Origin: Vulcanimicrobiota bacterium
Lineage (GTDB): Bacteria; Vulcanimicrobiota; JAJTBE01
Direction of reading: 5' to 3'
Assembly (NCBI GenBank): GCA_021107945.1
Contig: JAIORV010000097.1
Location: forward strand, 2,972-66,971
Length of the DNA: 64,000 nt
Shown: positions 3,195 to 63,678 of the stretch, piece by piece
How positions within the stretch are numbered: the stretch's first letter is position 1
Layout of the letters: every line of letters starts with the position of its first letter
The notes under the pieces: model-generated
The model's database searches: none
What the model was told of the DNA's origin: nothing
The model's input: only the letters and a program-made list of their open reading frames with translations
Made by a program: the position numbers and the translations under genes

Positions 3195-3202
3195 AGTGAC
3201 TA

Positions 3203-3303
3203 TTCACCGCAAAGACCACAAAGATTAAAAATTTTCTTTGCATTCTTTGCAGGCAACGTAGCGCGGGTCTTCAGACCCGCTAATCATCCTCAGAGCTACG
3301 TTG
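3203..3303. terminator. nested hairpin structures between convergent genes (repeat words plus a stem-within-stem); probable bidirectional terminator
   Basis: ttcaccgcaaagaccacaaag (3203-3223) pairs with ctttgcattctttgc (3236-3250). An outer stem caacgtagc (3254-3262) / gctacgttg (3295-3303) encloses an inner hairpin gcgggtc-ttca-gacccgc (3263-3280). The structure lies between the stop codons at 3194 (+) and 3329 (-). Confidence 0.4.
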
Positions 3304-3328: not shown

Positions 3329-5248
3329 CTACAGATCCTTATATCTCCGAAAATCCATTTCAGCTTCTTTTCTCCTGCCCATTCTCTCAAGAACCTCGCC
3401 TCGCTTCAGGTATGTGTTTGCAAGTCCCGGGTCAATCTCAATCGCCTTGTTGAAATCCTTCAGAGCTTCCTCATCCCTGCCCAGCTCGTAATTCAATGTC
3501 CCCCGCGTGACATATGCATCATTATAATCGGGATCTATCTCGATTGCCATGTTAAGGTCGCAAAGCGCTTGCGCCAATTCGCCTGTCTCTTTGTATGACA
3601 ATCCCCTTCCACAATATGCCATTGCTGAATCGGGGTTGATATCGAGGGCACTGTTGTTGTCCTCGATTGATTCCTCATATTCGCCAATATCGTGACATAT
3701 AAGGGCGCGGCAAATAAAGGCCTCCTCATATTCCGGGTTTATCTCCAGTGAACGGTTTAAATCCCCTATCGCCTCTCTGTAATTCCCCACGGCGTAATTT
3801 GCGAACCCTCGCCACAGGTAGGCTTCATCAAAGTCCGGATCCAAATCTATAGCCCTGTTGAAGTCGCCGATTGCCCTCCCGAATTCCTCAACCTCCCTGA
3901 AAACCAGCCCCCTTCCAACAAATGCCTCGGCGTAACCGGGATCGATAAGTATTGCCGAGTTGAAATCATCGAGAGCTTTATTGTTGTCGCCAATGATTGA
4001 TTTGATGGATCCTCTCTTACAAAGGGCGGAGACATAGGCGGGGTCGGCATCTATCGCCCTCGAGTAGTCTTCATTTGCTTTTTGGAGATTATCAAGATTT
4101 TCATAGGCCATTCCCCTCCACAGGTAAGGCCGGGCGAAATCCGAGTCCAACAGAATTGCCCTGCCGAATTGTTTTATCGCCTTCTCATAATCCCCCTTGT
4201 TGTACGAAGCGATTCCGTGGTTAAAAAAAGCGGTGGGTGTTTTTAAGACATGCTTCATATTCTCCAGCGTAACCATTATATGATGTATTGATTCCGGACG
4301 ATCCGCAGGCTTTATCTCGAGCATTTTCATTACCAGAGCTTCGAATCCCGGCGTAACCTCCGGATTCATGTTTTTTATCTTCTCAAAAGAGAAAGCCGGT
4401 AACTCCGGGGTTGCGGGGTTTATACCCGTCAGCAGGTAATGAATAATTGCTCCCAGTGAATATATGTTGCTTTTCTCGTCAACGATTCCCTTGTATTGTT
4501 CCGGCGAAGCAAATCCCGGGATGCCCGTCATTGCCCCTTTTTTTATTGACCTGAAAAAATGTGACAATCCCGGATCGGCAAGGTAAACCCTGTCCCCCGC
4601 CGACACTATAAAATGCGAGGGCTTGAGATTACAAAGAAAGATGGGGGGATACCTGCCGTGTAAATAATCGAGGAGATCCAGCATCTGATGAAGCCAAACT
4701 ATGACCTGGGATTGGGGCAGCGGTGTGTTTTTTCTTTCATACATAATTGTCTGGAGATCCTGCCCATAAACAAAAGCTGTTACCAGATGTAATTTTCCAT
4801 TTTCGAGAAAAAGTTTTATGAATCGCGGAAGTGATTTATGTGTAATATGAAAAATGTTATTAATCTTTTTATCAAGAATGTTGATTATCTCTTTTTTTCT
4901 TGCTTTTTCTGCGCCAGGTTCTCCGGGTTCATTATTTTCAACAAACATCTTTTCCGGTGTGAAGTATAATTTTTCTCCTGCAAAGTCTCTCCTGATATCC
5001 TGGGGCAGGATGATTTCCTTGATCGCCACCCTTGCGCCGGATTCGGTATCCCTCGCCCTGAAAACCGCCCCGGTCTCACCCCTGTGCACAATTGACTCCA
5101 CCCTGTATTTTCCCCCGATGACATCCGACTCACCCGGCGCATCAAACTCGCCAATGCCCTCGGAAGCAAGAGCACCTCCGCATTTCCCACAGAACCGGGA
5201 GGCCTCCTCGTTTTCCGCATTACATTTTTTACAGATAATATTGGACAT
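3329..5248 (-). CDS. Ser/Thr protein kinase-like protein with N-terminal zinc ribbon and C-terminal TPR array; catalytic loop degenerate (predicted pseudokinase)
   Basis: CKKCNAENEEASRFCGKCG zinc ribbon is followed by a kinase domain with VAIKEI lysine motif, DPG in place of DFG, and SPE in place of APE. LCNLKPSH replaces the canonical HRDLKPxN catalytic loop. The C-terminal half carries at least nine TPR-like repeats (AY..RG......A..D...AI..DP). Confidence 0.75.
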   Translation of the reverse strand: MSNIICKKCNAENEEASRFCGKCGGALASEGIGEFDAPGESDVIGGKYRVESIVHRGETGAVFRARDTESGARVAIKEIILPQDIRRDFAGEKLYFTPEKMFVENNEPGEPGAEKARKKEIINILDKKINNIFHITHKSLPRFIKLFLENGKLHLVTAFVYGQDLQTIMYERKNTPLPQSQVIVWLHQMLDLLDYLHGRYPPIFLCNLKPSHFIVSAGDRVYLADPGLSHFFRSIKKGAMTGIPGFASPEQYKGIVDEKSNIYSLGAIIHYLLTGINPATPELPAFSFEKIKNMNPEVTPGFEALVMKMLEIKPADRPESIHHIMVTLENMKHVLKTPTAFFNHGIASYNKGDYEKAIKQFGRAILLDSDFARPYLWRGMAYENLDNLQKANEDYSRAIDADPAYVSALCKRGSIKSIIGDNNKALDDFNSAILIDPGYAEAFVGRGLVFREVEEFGRAIGDFNRAIDLDPDFDEAYLWRGFANYAVGNYREAIGDLNRSLEINPEYEEAFICRALICHDIGEYEESIEDNNSALDINPDSAMAYCGRGLSYKETGELAQALCDLNMAIEIDPDYNDAYVTRGTLNYELGRDEEALKDFNKAIEIDPGLANTYLKRGEVLERMGRRKEAEMDFRRYKDL

Positions 5249-5372
5249 GTATCTGATTTCTAAGTTATGACGGAGATTCCCTTTTATGTAATCAAGTCAG
5301 GTAAGATTCATGTTTTTTTATATCTATTCACCGCAAAGGGTGCAAAGGAGGACGGAAGCCAGAGACCAGAGG

Positions 5373-5654
5373 CCGGATGACGGAGGCAAGTTTCCTGGGC
5401 GTGGTGATATTGCCCGCGGCATGACCCTGAATTATGAGCTTGTCAAAACGGGATTAGCTTGGCAGTGGAAATATTCGAATTATCCGACCCTGGGGAAGTT
5501 GGAGAACGAAGCACGGAGATCACGGCAGGGACTGGCAGGGGAAGAATCCGATTCCACCTTGGGACTGGAGGAAGGGGAAAAGATAATATTTACGAAATTG
5601 CTTCTTATATCCAATAGAAATAGTCCAAAGAAAGGAGATAAATATGAATCCTGA
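5373..5654 (+). pseudogene. remnant of a staphylococcal-nuclease (SNase/thermonuclease)-like gene; only the C-terminal third is conserved and the N-terminus is replaced by a repeat word
   Basis: Translation DDGGKFPGRGDIARGMTLNYELVKTGLAWQWKYSNYPTLGKLENEARRSRQGL aligns by eye with the SNase C-terminus (DKYGRGLAYIY..NEALVRQGLAKVAY...AQAKKEKLNIW). The upstream part of the ORF (5327-5376) is ttcaccgcaaagggtgcaaagg repeat sequence. The catalytic N-terminal region is absent. Confidence 0.4.
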
Positions 5655-6339
5655 GATAGCAGGAATGTTTGACCGGGCTGAGGAGTTAATCAGAGAATTG
5701 GAAGATGAATACACAAGGTGTAAGAAAGAAAGAGACATAACTGAAAAGCTTAAGAACATAACTCATGAGTTAATAGAGAAATTGAGGCATATACTTGACC
5801 ATGCAACAAGGGTGGCATGGGAAAAATATATTGCTCCAAAACTGAATAAAGAAGAAAAAGGCAAAGCTAGAGTTTACTTCCCAATTACGAATAAGACAGA
5901 GGGTTTTAAATCTATACTTGGGCGAGCCAAAATGCAGAATTTGGAGAAAGTAAACAAAGTTTTTTATGATTTTCTATTAAAACAACAACTATTTTCATCC
6001 TCCAAAAACAAATGGTTGATACAGTTAGCAAATCTTGCAGCAGAGGGGAAGCATGTTGAATTTGTGCCTCAGAGAATTAAAAAGCACCATCTAAAAACAT
6101 TAACCACACCGGAAGGTATAAATATTATTTTGGAGACTGCAGGAAATGCAAAAATATCAATTGGGGAAATTATTATAGGTGACCCAAAAGGCGAAAGAAG
6201 TTATGACCCTTCTAAACTTAGTGCGCGGGAGTGTTCCTGGGAATCTATTGTCATTAAAGACTATGATATTGATGTCCTCGATTTTTGCAAGGGAGTATAT
6301 GCAAAGACGCGTAAACTTGTGGAAGAGATGCCTAATTGA
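5644..6339 (+). CDS. hypothetical protein (231 aa), first gene of an AT-rich three-gene cassette
   Basis: Good RBS (aaaggagat) 7 nt before the ATG. No motif I recognise. Highly charged, with a coiled-coil-like N-terminus. Confidence 0.45.
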   Translation: MNPEIAGMFDRAEELIRELEDEYTRCKKERDITEKLKNITHELIEKLRHILDHATRVAWEKYIAPKLNKEEKGKARVYFPITNKTEGFKSILGRAKMQNLEKVNKVFYDFLLKQQLFSSSKNKWLIQLANLAAEGKHVEFVPQRIKKHHLKTLTTPEGINIILETAGNAKISIGEIIIGDPKGERSYDPSKLSARECSWESIVIKDYDIDVLDFCKGVYAKTRKLVEEMPN

Positions 6340-6467
6340 TTGTAGTCAAACGGCAACTTTCCAGATTGACTTTTTTGGGGAGGATACAAATTAAACCTTG
6401 CAAAATGCAAACAAAAATTCTTTCTGTTAAAGCGTTAAGAACAGTATAATAACGGCGTTTGATGGAC

Positions 6468-6497
6468 TTGACAAATGTGACCAACCAAAAGTATAAT
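6468..6497 (+). promoter_or_regulatory. near-consensus sigma70-type promoter (TTGACA-18-TATAAT) with an overlapping inverted repeat, upstream of the 6532 gene
   Basis: TTGACA at 6468-6473 and TATAAT at 6492-6497. The inverted repeat accaac...gttggt flanks the -10 and is a possible operator. RBS ggtgg precedes the ATG at 6532. Confidence 0.5.
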
Positions 6498-6531
6498 ATC
6501 TATAAACGTTGGTTATTTTTGGGGTGGTTAT

Positions 6532-6846
6532 ATGGATTTAATAAAGAGTGTCCTACAAGAGGAATTGGAATCATCACTTGAAACGCAGAAATACTATCAG
6601 AAGGAAATAAGCAAACTTCCGAGAGGAAGCTTATCAAAGAAAAAGACGGGTGGTAAAGCTTATTATTATTTGTCTTACAAGGAAGGTTCCAAAGTCAAGA
6701 CCGACTACCTGGGCAAACTCTCCGATGAAAAAATCAAAGACTATCAAGACAGGATAAACAAGCGAAGACATTATCAAAGTCAATTGAGAAAGGTCACCAA
6801 GAAAATAAAATATTTACGGAAGGTTTTGAATGTTAAAGCAATTTGA
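6532..6846 (+). CDS. small basic hypothetical protein (104 aa), translationally coupled to the downstream nucleotidyltransferase-fold gene (antitoxin-like position)
   Basis: Lys/Arg-rich with a coiled-coil-like C-terminus. The stop overlaps the next gene's start by 17 nt (ATGTTAAAGCAATTTGA). Confidence 0.45.
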   Translation: MDLIKSVLQEELESSLETQKYYQKEISKLPRGSLSKKKTGGKAYYYLSYKEGSKVKTDYLGKLSDEKIKDYQDRINKRRHYQSQLRKVTKKIKYLRKVLNVKAI

Positions 6847-7522
6847 ATTGGTGGACGAAATCCTGAAAGCCCTGGACAAGGAAGGCGTCCTTGTTAATAT
6901 CATTATTGTGGGGAGCTGGTGTATTTATTTCTATAAACACCATTTTGAGGAAGCTAGAATCCTGTCCAATATAACAACTCTGGACATTGATATCGATGTG
7001 AACCCTCTTCGCAAGGAGAAGAGAAAAGTTAATATTTCCGACATATTAATATCCCTGGGGTTTGACCTGCGTTTTCATGGTGATGGTTCTATTTCTTTGA
7101 TACATCCGGAAATCAAAGCAGAATTCCTCGTTCCGGAAATAGGAAGGCCTGCCCATGATCCCATCAAAATACCCGGATTCGGAATCACAGCACAACCCTT
7201 GCGATGGCTTAATCTCCTGGAAGAGGAAGTTATCACTGTAGATTATAAAGGCATGCAGGTGAAGGTTCCCCATCCTGCCCGGTTTGCAGTCCATAAACTT
7301 ATAATATCCCAACGGAGAATCGGGAGGAATCCAAAGGTTAAAAAAGATATTCACCAAGGAATTGAGGTTGCAAGAATGCTTATCGAAATGGGACAAGCTG
7401 GAAAACTCAATGAGATTATCGGGGGATTATCCTTGAAACAAAAAAAACTTGTCAGAAAAGCCCTGGCGGGTGTGGATTCATCATTTATAGAAAAATTGCT
7501 ATCCAATAATGGGGAAGTGTAA
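6830..7522 (+). CDS. Pol-beta-superfamily minimal nucleotidyltransferase-fold protein (AbiEii/MNT-like), hypothetical
   Basis: IIIVGSW (hG[GS] motif) is followed by RILSNITTLDIDIDV (acidic DxDxD). This matches the nucleotidyltransferase-fold signature. Size is 230 aa. Confidence 0.45.
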   Translation: MLKQFELVDEILKALDKEGVLVNIIIVGSWCIYFYKHHFEEARILSNITTLDIDIDVNPLRKEKRKVNISDILISLGFDLRFHGDGSISLIHPEIKAEFLVPEIGRPAHDPIKIPGFGITAQPLRWLNLLEEEVITVDYKGMQVKVPHPARFAVHKLIISQRRIGRNPKVKKDIHQGIEVARMLIEMGQAGKLNEIIGGLSLKQKKLVRKALAGVDSSFIEKLLSNNGEV

Positions 7523-7778
7523 ACAATAATTTCGCAAAAGGTAGGAAGGGGGGATACTTTGCTTTTCCGGATAGTATTCATGCGGGTTCAAGTGGGTGAG
7601 CATGAAGTGGGCAAGCATGAAGTTGGCAAAATGAAGGGAGTGTGGGGCATCTTTAGGACAAAATGTTTCCAAAACAGGATAATACAGTGCTATTTTATAC
7701 CAAATACGACACGATTTTCTATAACTAAAAAACCCACCGTTTTCTTGAAATGGCGGGTTTTGTTATTGTTTTTGGGAT

Positions 7779-7851
7779 GGGCGGAGAGGGACTTGAACCC
7801 ACGACCTCCTGAATGTAAGTCAGATGCTCTAGCCAACTGAGCTACCCGCCC
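7779..7851 (-). tRNA. tRNA-Val (anticodon TAC)
   Basis: Reverse complement reads GGGCGGGTAGCTCAGTTGGCTAGAGCATCTGACTTACATTCAGGAGGTCGTGGGTTCAAGTCCCTCTCCGCCCA. It folds as a cloverleaf with anticodon loop CTTACAT. CCA is not encoded. Confidence 0.85.
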
Positions 7852-7959
7852 GATGAAAAAATGAAAAATTATCCTTTCCGGGTAATATTCTTTACGATTA
7901 TTTGCCCGGATTTGACAGGAAGGCAGGAATATTTCACCTGCCTCCGTCGATTGTAAAGT

Positions 7960-8032
7960 GACCCCAACGGGATTCGAACCCGTGATCTTCACCTTGAAAG
8001 GGTGATGTCCTAGGCCGCTAGACGATGGGGCC
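7960..8032 (-). tRNA. tRNA-Glu (anticodon TTC)
   Basis: Reverse complement reads GGCCCCATCGTCTAGCGGCCTAGGACATCACCCTTTCAAGGTGAAGATCACGGGTTCGAATCCCGTTGGGGTCA, with anticodon loop CTTTCAA. Confidence 0.85.
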
Positions 8033-8100
8033 GTTTTTTATACCAAAATTATTAACATTCCGGTGGATCTTCCACATAAAACAAAGGCCATCAAATAGGA

Positions 8101-8173
8101 TGGGCCCACCCGGATTCGAACCAGGGACCGATCGGTTATGAGCCGACTGCTCTACCGCTGAGCTATGGGCCCT
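8101..8173 (-). tRNA. tRNA with CAT anticodon (Met elongator or Ile2/lysidine type)
   Basis: Reverse complement reads GGGCCCATAGCTCAGCGGTAGAGCAGTCGGCTCATAACCGATCGGTCCCTGGTTCGAATCCGGGTGGGCCCA, with anticodon loop CTCATAA. The G1-C72 pair argues against an initiator. Confidence 0.8.
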
Positions 8174-8334
8174 CATGTCCTTTGACGCTGTTTATTATAA
8201 TGTAAAACATCCTCCAGGTCAATACCCATGACAAAAATATTTTACAACCAGGTTGACATTTACCCGGACAATGCCTTTAAATTCAACGCAGAGCTCGCAG
8301 AGACCGCAGAGGAGAACTAATAAATATCTGCGAT

Positions 8335-9665
8335 ATTTCCAATATTGAGTCATGAAGTGGGAAGTGGGAAATGGGAAAAAATAGAAATTTTGAGATTTTT
8401 CGATGTTCTTTTATCCGTTGTTCGTTTTGGGGGGTGCGGTGAAGAGAGAGAGAGCCACCGGGAAGACGCTGAAGCGCCTGTTTTTTATAGGGTTGTGTGT
8501 ATTCCCTTCTTCCCCCGGATAAATCCGGGGGTTAGTCTCATGGGAGATCTAAAAACCTCTCATGCCTGACCTCCATCCTCCAGCTTCCATATTCCGTCAT
8601 CCATTACCCTCTGCGTTCTCTGTGGTGAATGGGAAAAAGGAAAAGGGAAAAAAGGAAAAGACCGGGGTTTTGAGGTTTTTCGATACTCTCTTATCCGTTA
8701 TTATTCATTTTCTTCGTGACCTCCGTGGCTTCGTGGTGAATTCCATTCTCCATTCTCCGGACCCCTCTGTGTACTCTGTGCCCTCTGTGGTAAAAAAACA
8801 CTTGTCCTTCGAACCTCTTTGTGGGGTTTGTGGTGAATAAATAAATCTGTCATACATTTTTCACAATCCGTTTTATCGGGATTGGGAAATCCCTCCTACA
8901 GATCTAATCTTTCATGACATCTCCTCAACCTCCGATGGGGACTGGATTTCAGAGGTCAGGAGATGTCCCGGGACAAGGTCTTCAAGCTCCGTTGCTTTGC
9001 CTCGGACATCCGGTTTAGAGGTTTTTCAAATATATGGAAGGGGGAAATGAGAAGCGAGAAATGAGAAAAGAATTTCTCAACTCTCGTCTCCCGATTCTCT
9101 TTTCTTATTTCCACCACACCATTAACCTTCAGAATCTGGAAGCCTCTGAAGAGGCTAAGACGGCGTGGTTAAGCCATTCTCTCTCCACCACAATAAATTG
9201 TGGTGTTGTTCTAAAAAACAATTGCGGTGTTGTTCTAAAATTAATAGTTGCATTATTGTCAATGCACTCTAAATATCACATCCATTTCCATGTAAATGTA
9301 AATGGATATAAAGATTAGCCTACAGATCCGGGCTCGTATTTTTCTTCGTGTCCTCCGTGGCTTCGTGGTGAATTCTATCCTCCATTCTCCGGACCCCTCT
9401 GTGTACTCTGTGCCCTCTGTGGTAAAAAAACACTTGTCCTTCGAACCTCTTTGTGGGGTTTGTGGTGAATAAATAAATCTGTCATACATTTTTCACAATC
9501 CGTTTTATCGGGATTGGGAAATCCCTCCTACAGATCTGGGCTCTATTTTTCTTCGTGTCTGGAGCCTGCGCTGAACTTGTTTCAGTGTGTCTTCGTGGTG
9601 AATTCTATCCTCCGAATTCCTCTGCGATCTCTGCGTCCTCTGCGTTGAAAAACACATCCGAGCTG
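8335..9665. repeat. 1.3-kb mosaic array of short modular repeat words downstream of the tRNA cluster; includes two near-identical ~195-bp direct repeats (8710-8905 and 9343-9537)
   Basis: Contains catgaagtgggaagtgggaaatggg, ctccgtggcttcgtggtgaa, the CCCCCGGATAAATCCGGGGG palindrome, ccacaataaattgtgg+tgttgttctaaaa (twice), and ttatcgggattgggaaatccctcctacagatct (twice). The ORFs the track predicts here are low-complexity translations of the repeats. Confidence 0.8.
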
Positions 9666-19062: not shown

Positions 19063-19336
19063 CTTAATCCTCCGGAAATAATATTTTCAACCTGATATTC
19101 TTTTTCCGGCAAGATATTCCTGTTACATCAGGTTGAGTATCCCGGGGAAGGATTTTATATTGTTTTGCCCGAATTTGTATATGATAGTAGATTCAAAAAG
19201 GAATTAGCTATTTACAATAATAAATGTCGATTTAATTGGAATGACGATAAAACCGCAAAGAAGCAAAGAACGCAAAGAAAGTTATTATTAACCTTTGTGG
19301 TCTTTGCGGTGAATATATTAAAAAGGAGTTTTGCAC

Positions 19337-22074: not shown

Positions 22075-22480
22075 ATTTGAAGGATCAAAATTAACCGCAA
22101 AGAAGCAAAGAACGCAAAGTGGTCTTTGTGGTGAAAAAACAAATCCATTATCGGGACGAGGACGTCCCTCCTACAGATCTGGAGAATTCCAACCTCCGAA
22201 TCCCTCTGTGGTCTTTGTGGTCTTTGCGGTGAATAAACAAATCCGTCGTCCATTATTCGCAATCCGTTTATCGGGATTAGGAAATCCCTCCTATAAAGGA
22301 AAGGGGAAAGGGGACATGGGAAACGAGATCCATTATCCGTCATCCATTATCCATTTTCCAATATCCATTATCCGTTTGTCGAGATGGTCATACAGATTCG
22401 ACCTGCGTCATCAGTTTTCCGAATCCCTCCGTGTTCTCCGTGGCTTCGTGGTGAATGGAAAAAGAGAAAAGGGATTCTTC
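22075..22480. repeat. mosaic repeat array (ccgcaaagaagcaaagaacgcaaag words, two TTATCGGGA-hairpin modules, atccattatccg words)
   Basis: Modules at 22155-22190 (stem GGGACG/CGTCCC) and 22262-22300 (stem GGGATT(A)/AATCCC). ccattatccgtcatccattatccattttccaatatccattatccg lies at 22320-22380. Confidence 0.8.
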
Positions 22481-62908: not shown

Positions 62909-63678
62909 TATATTTTCCTCCAGCCTATATTTTAGAATTTGAAACTATCGAAATTACAACTATATTATAGTCCGCATTGCGAGGAACATCAATTAACAAA
63001 ATGTAAACAATTGCTATATTATTGTTAAAAAAAAGGTAACTATTCACCGCAGAGGGCGCAGAGAGCGCGGAGAGAAGAAAAAGAGGAGAACTTTCATATA
63101 AGTACTTACGCAAAATGAGGAGTGAGTCCTGTCATACTGAAACAAGCCTGCCCTGACGAAGGCCAGGGTTCAGCACAGGTTTCTGAGCGGTACAAGAAAG
63201 AACGTAAGCATTCAGTCCTCCCTTGCAGGAGTAGCATCTTGCCACGAAAATCGAGGCTGGAAGCCTCTCCTTCAGTGATGGGTCTGAATAAATACTTAAT
63301 TTTTATACTCGAAAATCGGTATTCAGAATTTAGTGAATAGCAGACAATGCTTCTAATCCTCTGCGCCTGCACTGAGAATTCTCTGATTTATCTCTGTGCT
63401 CTCTGTGTTCTCTGTGGTAAAAAAACATAGGGGCTGAACAGTAACAAAAAAAAATTTTAAGTGTAGGGACTGCGAAAAATCGATAATGTCAAAATAAATT
63501 CATGAATCTATAGAAGGGAATGTTGCATAGCTAAAGAATTAATTATCTATACTCCCAAAATATGACACAAAGGCTCAGATTAGGACTGAATTATAGTATC
63601 TATATGCAGGGATCACCAGTTCTTGCTCAAGCAAATGACAAAATAGCGGGAGTATATAAAAAATGAGGAGGGATATGT

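Follow-up and report, generated by a model that had tools for sequence, protein, structure and literature searches.

A candidate toxin-antitoxin module pairing a PF12281 nucleotidyltransferase with a small DUF6788-like protein

Among the effectors of growth arrest and phage defence, nucleotidyltransferase toxins such as AbiEii and MenT form an important class, and to our knowledge all of those known belong to a single family, DUF1814. Here we describe two overlapping genes, encoding proteins of 104 and 230 amino acids (aa), in a stretch of 64,000 nucleotides (nt) from contig JAIORV010000097.1 of a Vulcanimicrobiota bacterium, which is called the window below and in which all coordinates are counted. 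On balance, the unit that these genes form with their promoter is probably an autorepressed MenAT/AbiE-like toxin-antitoxin (TA) module with a new partner protein.

The closest described systems resemble the window module in some respects and differ from it in others. AbiE, a type IV TA and abortive-infection system, is encoded by overlapping bicistronic genes, as is the window module. It is negatively autoregulated via inverted repeats in its promoter (11 base pairs (bp), 27 nt apart), and the window module appears to be regulated likewise (8-12 bp, 18-22 nt apart); nucleotidyltransferase motifs I-III are found in both enzymes (PMC3985639). However, AbiEi combines a winged helix-turn-helix with a C-terminal antitoxin domain in about 200 aa, whereas the window partner is an alpha-beta3-alpha mini-protein, and the motif IV of AbiEii, +DxxD, corresponds to an incomplete KDxxQ in the window enzyme, which belongs to a different Pfam family. 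In MenAT1 of Mycobacterium tuberculosis (Rv0078B/Rv0078A), MenT1 is classed as DUF1814 and has no detectable sequence match to the window enzyme, a member of PF12281. Its antitoxin MenA1 has 68 aa, consists of helices only and lacks a DNA-binding domain, whereas the window partner has 104 aa, contains a beta-sheet and is associated with an operator. In MenAT3/TglT (Rv1044-Rv1045), MenT3 has about 290 aa and is accompanied by an AbiEi-like antitoxin; a tRNA CMP-transferase activity is so far demonstrated for MenT3 alone. The families that the window proteins belong to or border on, PF12281 (the GSU2403 family of NCBI) and PF20586 (DUF6788), carry names that give no function.

Limits, pairing and mobility of the two-gene unit

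The earlier note, made from the letters alone, had grouped three same-strand genes and the remnant of a staphylococcal nuclease (SNase) gene beside a tRNA cluster into one accessory cassette, the last two genes of which would form an autoregulated TA- or abortive-infection-like bicistronic module. The positions and same-strand order of the open reading frames (ORFs) and the overlap of the last two by 17 nt (6830-6846) are as it described, and so is the AT-richness: the GC content is 0.35-0.36 across 5600-7000 as compared with 0.42-0.51 in most adjacent windows up to 11.8 kb. The bicistronic module is likewise supported by the sequence evidence below, but the cassette is not. Relatives of the enzyme were collected from species-representative genomes, in which 284 stretches encode one; 80 loci were retrieved, 78 of which could be assessed, having a delimitable enzyme ORF and upstream DNA. 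In blastn comparisons with the closest relatives, similarity (75-83% nucleotide identity) is confined to the region from about 6382-6410 to about 7510, and it starts at 6382-6410 in the relative loci L082, L093 and L086. A leader block, AAATTAAACCT..TCAAAAT, is conserved in alignment A4. The similarity stops at these points, and therefore the unit is the promoter/operator and the two genes, a self-contained module at 6382-7522, not the whole cassette. The 231-aa gene and the SNase remnant were rejected as members, since the 231-aa protein is missing from all 80 loci with the two-gene pair and nucleotide similarity to the closest relatives is limited to 6382-7510.

Within this unit the pairing is obligatory. 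An ORF of about 105 aa overlaps the start of the enzyme gene in 78 of the 78 assessable loci, and these ORFs are homologous to that of the window (phmmer E values from 3e-9 to 4e-31). Their hosts include Omnitrophota, Elusimicrobiota, Planctomycetota, Victivallales, Clostridia, Nitrospirota, archaea and others. The position of a GGAAGG ribosome-binding site inside the 104-aa gene fits translational coupling of the second gene to the first.

The surroundings of the pair vary. Among the close relatives, L084 and L086 adjoin a block of helix-turn-helix (HTH), DnaB, primase and transposase genes, L090 a restriction-modification system with an IS110 fragment, L085 genes for HicB and an excisionase-like HTH protein, and L093 ankyrin-repeat and unannotated genes, while L082 sits among housekeeping genes. 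The nearest neighbours at the 80 loci bring together 155 Pfam families among 133 proteins, the most frequent being Phage_integrase (5) and ResIII (4). Neighbouring genes thus appear unrelated from locus to locus, which suggests that the module is horizontally mobile. Two small, co-directional and overlapping genes that move as a unit independently of their context are what is found in TA operons in general.

Does the module integrate at tRNA genes, as its position in the window led the earlier note to suspect? The minus strand carries three tRNA genes, for tRNA-Val, tRNA-Glu and tRNA-Met, at 7778-8172, beginning 256 nt past the last stop codon, and an Rfam scan of 5000-9000 found these three and nothing else. 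No duplication of the three tRNAs resembling an attachment (att) site was found within the window, and integration at these tRNAs is not supported. Of 60 relative loci, 5 have a tRNA gene at most 300 nt away from the module, as compared with about one estimated by chance. A search of related genomes for an empty site by way of the flanking gene, encoding a Ser/Thr kinase with tetratricopeptide repeats (TPR), gave only distant TPR matches and no close relative. In one locus, L078, from a Clostridia metagenome-assembled genome (MAG), the module lies between an intact tRNA-Thr(CGT) gene and a second copy (3363-3437 and 4699-4771 of that locus). The copy shares the 3' 60 nt or so and diverges at its 5' end, and the insert of 1.26 kb has no integrase gene; this duplication looks like an att-type integration scar.

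A promoter with an inverted repeat around its -10 box

The near-perfect promoter and the inverted repeat across its -10 box, both picked out in the earlier note, are present in the window. TTGACA-18-TATAAT (6468-6497) is the sole 12/12 promoter match in 5200-7800. The two arms, TGACCAAC and GTTGGTTA, are complementary at 7 of 8 positions and stand 22 nt apart, or can alternatively be drawn as 14-nt arms at 79%; the 64 kb contain a single ACCAAC-N20-24-GTTGGT, where 0.01 would be expected. Among the relatives at large, the best inverted repeat in the 100 nt 5' of the small gene has a mean score of 10.7 (5.3 in shuffled sequence), and the arms are mostly perfect over 10-12 nt. The common layout is a distal inverted repeat, then TTGACA, then a proximal inverted repeat that brackets the -10 box. 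The proximal pair, TACCNNAC-N22-GTNNGGTA, surrounds the -10 box in 75 of 79 loci, and in 60 of these 75, the window included, the gap between the 8-nt cores is exactly 22 nt (30 bp from centre to centre). Across the same 75 loci, TTGACA is perfect and in the same position as in the window in 44, the -10 box is at most one mismatch from TATAAT in 57, the spacer between the two boxes is 17 nt in 48, and extra distal half-sites are found in 56.

The core of the arms varies between loci, being ATAC, AAAC, TAAC, CAAC, TTAC or, as in the window, AACCAAC, yet the two to four half-sites within one locus agree with one another. In the window subgroup, promoter and arms are conserved despite the unrelated genomic contexts. 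The close relatives of the window carry TAACCAAC as the left arm, and at L085 a compensatory change has affected both arms, giving TACCTAAC/GTTAGGTA (ACCTAAC/GTTAGGT). We infer that the operator acts as a DNA site rather than as an RNA hairpin, because its left arm lies upstream of the probable transcription start. The inverted repeats flanking the -10 box, with their covarying arms, are strong evidence, at the level of sequence, for a putative autoregulation through palindromic operators that overlap the promoter.

Which part of the small protein might read these sites? The arm type correlates best with positions 57, 48 and 35 of the small protein, normalised for column entropy; as no correction for phylogeny was applied, this correlation is suggestive only. 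From the strand register in the secondary structure of the predicted model, residues 35, 48 and 57 are expected on the same side of the sheet as the conserved K37, Y44, Y46, R50 and Y59.

The enzyme, its partner and a proposed mechanism

The 230-aa protein scores well above the gathering threshold of PF12281 (NTP_transf_8; 82.3 against 26.3 bits, E 6.5e-23, residues 8-184), a family matched by all 18 aligned relatives and called 'GSU2403 family nucleotidyltransferase fold protein' by NCBI. An identical protein is on deposit from a Candidatus Eremiobacteraeota MAG. The earlier note had read the motifs IVGSW, LDIDIDV and GKAYYYLSYKEGSK correctly. Over the 18 relatives (35-83% identity), G28, S29, W30, T50, D52, E103, R125, K156 and R163 are invariant and D54 and E98 nearly so, which yields the family signature GS...DxD...E...KLxxxxxR. 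In a confident AlphaFold model (predicted local distance difference test (pLDDT) 90.3), G28 and S29 follow the strand 25-27, D52 and D54 (DIDID) lie on the second strand, 52-56, and E98 lies on the strand 96-102, followed by E103. The enzyme thus has the features of the Pol-beta-like nucleotidyltransferase superfamily, namely hG[GS] after strand 1, DxD on the second strand and a further carboxylate on an adjacent one, and its GS/DxD residues occupy the expected catalytic positions. The earlier note had named two findings that would speak against it, a housekeeping family with a conserved context and a failure of GS/DxD to align with the catalytic positions; neither was obtained, because these residues are invariant at the catalytic sites (nearly so for D54) and the context is not conserved.

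As to the enzyme class, the earlier note had left open AbiEii-like toxins and cGAS/DncV-like nucleotidyltransferases (CD-NTases) or SMODS proteins; the Pol-beta fold and the structural neighbourhood of AbiEii/MenT stood, and the CD-NTase/SMODS option did not. A nucleotide-signalling defence system of the latter type, resembling the cyclic oligonucleotide-based anti-phage signalling system (CBASS), shares with the window enzyme the minimal GS...DxD signature only; a cGAS/DncV-like fold with an adjacent effector gene was not found, and we disfavour this explanation as hardly credible. The nearest structures to the model are MenT1 (11.7), ANT(2'') (11.2), TglT/MenT3 (10.4), TM1012 (10.0), MenT4 (10.0), a putative nucleotidyltransferase of Helicobacter pylori (9.6) and LnuA (9.5).

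The motifs of AbiEii nucleotidyltransferases, including motif III (KLxAaxxR) and motif IV (+DxxD), have been defined previously (PMC3985639). Motifs I, II and III are present in the window enzyme, motif III being K156-L-I-I-S-Q-R-R163 (K156-x6-R163), with both end residues invariant, and in the model it is carried by an additional helical domain. On the other hand, the AbiEii/DUF1814 (PF08843) profile, one of those that the earlier note had proposed to try, found none of the 18 members at E <= 1, and a PDB sequence profile search with the enzyme alignment returned no MenT or AbiEii chain at E <= 10 and nothing else relevant. Since motifs I-III are shared but sequence matches to DUF1814 and PDB chains are absent, the enzyme, as modelled, appears to use the MenT/AbiEii scaffold and yet to stand outside their family.

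The partner, which the earlier note had proposed to compare with AbiEi and other antitoxin families, is not AbiEi-like. No HTH and no AbiEi Pfam match was found in the 104-aa protein, and hence not the winged HTH with C-terminal domain of AbiEi/COG5340. Its AlphaFold2 model (pLDDT 95) consists of a helix (2-27), a three-stranded sheet (33-61) and a second helix (65-99). The protein scores 16.7 bits with PF20586.3 (DUF6788), below the threshold of 27.2, and 7 of 39 small-protein relatives reach E < 0.1 with this model; the precomputed PF20586.4 annotation of the genome collection lists it as DUF6788 without a 'weak' mark. A profile search with the small protein found 2792 relatives. Weak matches to the Hfq/Sm model, below its cut-off of 27 bits, were observed in 23 of the 39 relatives over residues 31-64 of alignment A3, with scores of 16-17 bits and a best E of 5e-4, and one Joint Genome Institute record names its copy 'Hfq'; this resemblance is probably one of beta-strands rather than a sign of RNA binding.

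The two roles might also be reversed. In type VII HEPN-MNT systems, which are the precedent for a nucleotidyltransferase as antitoxin, the minimal nucleotidyltransferase (MNT) is a protein of about 100-140 aa. By this precedent the window enzyme, which belongs to the same Pol-beta superfamily as MNT, would be an antitoxin that nucleotidylylates a toxic small protein. However, the enzyme has 230 aa and the helical domain with motif III, unlike MNT, and the small protein has no Rx4-6H motif, which is not conserved in its alignment, and no enzyme-like features; membership of the HEPN-MNT type was rejected on these grounds. The small protein is also encoded first, the usual position of an antitoxin. 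Furthermore, at the relative loci L082 and L083 the enzyme is truncated after residue 133, with loss of motif III, while the homologue of the 104-aa gene is intact, an arrangement that should be lethal if the small protein were toxic. We therefore regard reversed roles as very unlikely.

Further evidence on the pair comes from plasmids. Proteins distantly related to the enzyme (25-32% identity) are encoded on 341 plasmid records, most of them from Rhizobium, Sinorhizobium, Agrobacterium and the roseobacter group. Those examined from alphaproteobacterial plasmids have 340-367 aa, with PF12281 starting only at about residue 105, and they have Thr in place of Ser29 of the window enzyme, like MenT1. 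When a hidden Markov model (HMM) of eight of the N-terminal extensions of about 100 aa was run against 2067 six-frame ORFs, the top 40 were all small-protein ORFs, with E values down to 2e-5. The partner is therefore fused to the N-terminus of the enzyme in this lineage, a fusion of the Rosetta-stone type; hhalign of the small-protein alignment against the extensions, the less convincing of the two tests, gave a weak match (P 5.5e-4, probability 30%). Strong inverted repeats stand before the fused genes too, and some of them share the core, as in TACCCCAC-N12-GTGGGGTA. CapRel(SJ46) is a fused toxin-antitoxin protein. The plasmid relatives of the window module are single polypeptides as well, but their domain order and families differ from those of CapRel(SJ46). 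On plasmid p1 of Burkholderia gladioli (locus L108), the PF12281 enzyme has no extension and is overlapped from upstream by a gene for a 379-aa protein (1835-2971 of that locus), which is annotated as 'RpiR family regulator' and has only winged-helix (Crp/MarR-like) matches, in its middle. This gene may represent an alternative partner family. Different MenT toxins pair with unrelated antitoxins (PMC10435456, PMC11375011), and by analogy with these MenA antitoxins the Burkholderia case would be one of partner swapping.

The main rival explanation takes the fold and the fusion the other way: the enzyme would be a regulated, non-toxic one that modifies a small molecule, such as an aminoglycoside, a lincosamide or a metabolite, and the small protein would be its repressor or sensor domain, as in BirA and NadR. 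Both the fold similarity to ANT(2'') and LnuA and the existence of forms in one polypeptide agree with it. Several observations do not. Operator specificity diverges fast between loci, the genomic context is highly variable, with enrichment next to genes for integrases, transposases and further TA systems, and in one lineage the small gene has been kept and the enzyme lost; all these are traits of selfish modules. Overlapping, coupled genes are unusual for resistance genes, and the hosts are mostly uncultured environmental bacteria with no obvious link to antibiotics. We consider a modifying enzyme of this sort unlikely.

A TA module could work as follows. The promoter, of the sigma-70 type, would drive the 104-aa gene and, by translational coupling through the 17-nt overlap, the 230-aa gene. 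The 104-aa protein would dimerise via its helical hairpin and use its three-stranded sheet to read the half-sites TGACCAAC and GTTGGTTA, 30 bp apart from centre to centre, thereby repressing the operon. It would also bind and silence the enzyme, either occluding it in the manner of MenA1 or causing the invariant Ser29 to be autophosphorylated; these alternatives are drawn from the modes of neutralisation in MenA1/MenT1 and MenA3/MenT3 (PMC11375011). The free enzyme, by analogy with MenT1, MenT3, MenT4 and AbiEii, would transfer nucleotides to a nucleic acid of the cell, with tRNA 3' ends as the most likely target, and so stop growth, and the pair would act as a toxin-antitoxin, addiction or abortive-infection module.

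Obligatory pairing, coupling, a fast-diverging operator of its own, mobility and the MenT-like fold together fit an autoregulated TA or abortive-infection module. Several points weigh against it. The non-toxic enzymes ANT(2'') and LnuA are, by the model, equally close in fold; motif IV is incomplete (K170-D171-I-H-Q174 in the window, KDxxQA in the family consensus), the second Asp being missing; and the DUF1814 profile fails to match. The fusion agrees equally well with an enzyme that carries a DNA-binding domain for regulation or targeting and with a toxin joined to an antitoxin, and the residue/operator correlation is uncorrected for shared ancestry. The enzyme was not found in the phage genome collection or in IMG/VR viral contigs, and no PADLOC model matched the module. 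PF12281 and DUF6788 appear to be catalogued but uncharacterised, and neither they nor NTP_transf_8 are mentioned in the literature searched. The pairing, the fusion and the operator are new here, no paper describing them having been found in that literature.

A further proposal concerns the partner itself, and we put it forward tentatively, as something possible but rather less probable than the TA reading as such. The 104-aa protein would stand for a class of sequence-specific DNA-binding repressors not described before. Built as a prefoldin-like helical hairpin with a three-stranded sheet as its cap, it would read TACCNNAC half-sites three helical turns apart with a specificity set largely by residues 35, 48 and 57. 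It would double as the neutralising partner, or the fused N-terminal domain, of a new family of MenT-like toxins widespread in uncultured phyla and on alphaproteobacterial plasmids.

Neighbouring features and outlook

The features of the region are collected in Table 1; all four ORFs are on the plus strand.

Table 1. Coordinates of the module, its control elements and the adjacent features
Feature	Position	Strand	Remark
ORF, 114 aa	5310-5654	+	SNase-like remnant
SNase pseudogene remnant	5376-5586	+	Outside the module; partial Pfam match, frameshift
ORF, 231 aa	5644-6339	+	Unannotated family, independent neighbour
Upstream leader of the module, conserved	6382-6467	+	Left edge of nucleotide similarity to relatives in unrelated contexts
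-35 hexamer TTGACA	6468-6473	+	12/12 promoter match
Left operator half-site TGACCAAC	6478-6485	+	Within the -35/-10 spacer
-10 hexamer TATAAT	6492-6497	+	Between both operator arms
Right operator half-site GTTGGTTA	6508-6515	+	About +4 to +11 of the inferred transcript start
Shine-Dalgarno-like GGGGTGG, 5' of 104-aa gene	6521-6527	+	Direct sequence reading
ORF, 104 aa	6532-6846	+	DUF6788-like; candidate antitoxin/repressor
GGAAGG ribosome-binding site for 230-aa gene, inside 104-aa gene	6818-6823	+	Direct sequence reading
ORF, 230 aa	6830-7522	+	PF12281 (GSU2403-family) nucleotidyltransferase; candidate toxin/effector
Copies of CTATTCACCGCAAAGG	3200-3215, 5324-5339, 19301-19316, 22221-22236, 63040-63055	both

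The SNase remnant, which the earlier note had recognised together with a repeat word in its 5' part, proved to be frameshifted in addition. The 114-aa ORF matches Pfam SNase (PF00565) with E 3.5e-5 over model positions 47-104 of 107 only, and the conserved C-terminus, DWQGKNPIPPWDWRKGKR followed by a stop (the PPWDWRK segment), is encoded in another frame, up to 5586, with the frameshift near 5531-5534. A complete nuclease domain in a single frame was not found in 5310-5654; the partial match and the C-terminus in a different frame point to a 5'-truncated, frameshifted pseudogene outside the module. The 16-nt word CTATTCACCGCAAAGG (at most two mismatches) is found five times in the window, on both strands, as compared with 0.04 expected, and one copy sits at the start of the 114-aa ORF; it resembles a short intergenic repeat dispersed through this genome.

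The 231-aa gene is an unlinked orphan, an independent neighbour of the module. Its family is sparse, counting 202 representatives in the library at E <= 0.001; the members are stand-alone proteins some 235 aa long, in which P80, Q115 and H137 are invariant. No Pfam and no PDB match was found for the family; in PHROGs the protein has a weak match (E 1e-6) to phrog_13652, a family of unknown function. NCBIfam and PADLOC gave no usable match for any of the four proteins.

Between the stop codon of the 230-aa gene and tRNA-Val, a tandem repeat with a unit of about 15 nt (AGCATGAAGTGGGCA / AGCATGAAGTTGGCA) occupies 7596-7645. A 93-aa ORF at 7559-7840, a gene call in a public assembly, overlaps the tRNA-Val gene on the opposite strand and is probably spurious. 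Beyond the tRNA cluster lie two direct repeats of 198 nt, 98% identical and 632 nt apart (8708-8905 and 9340-9537), which yield near-identical spurious ORFs, and a third, partial copy of 27 nt at 9587-9613.

If the PF12281 enzyme and its DUF6788-like partner are a working TA pair, the class of nucleotidyltransferase toxins would gain a second enzyme family and a new partner fold. Thousands of relatives of the small protein are found in phyla with almost no experimental genetics, such as Omnitrophota, Elusimicrobiota and Planctomycetota, and rhizobial and roseobacter plasmids carry genes for distant relatives of the enzyme. The natural operator variants, paired as they are with residue changes, offer a ready test of a possible new mode of DNA recognition, and in genome annotation two genes labelled 'hypothetical' or 'domain-containing' can become one unit.

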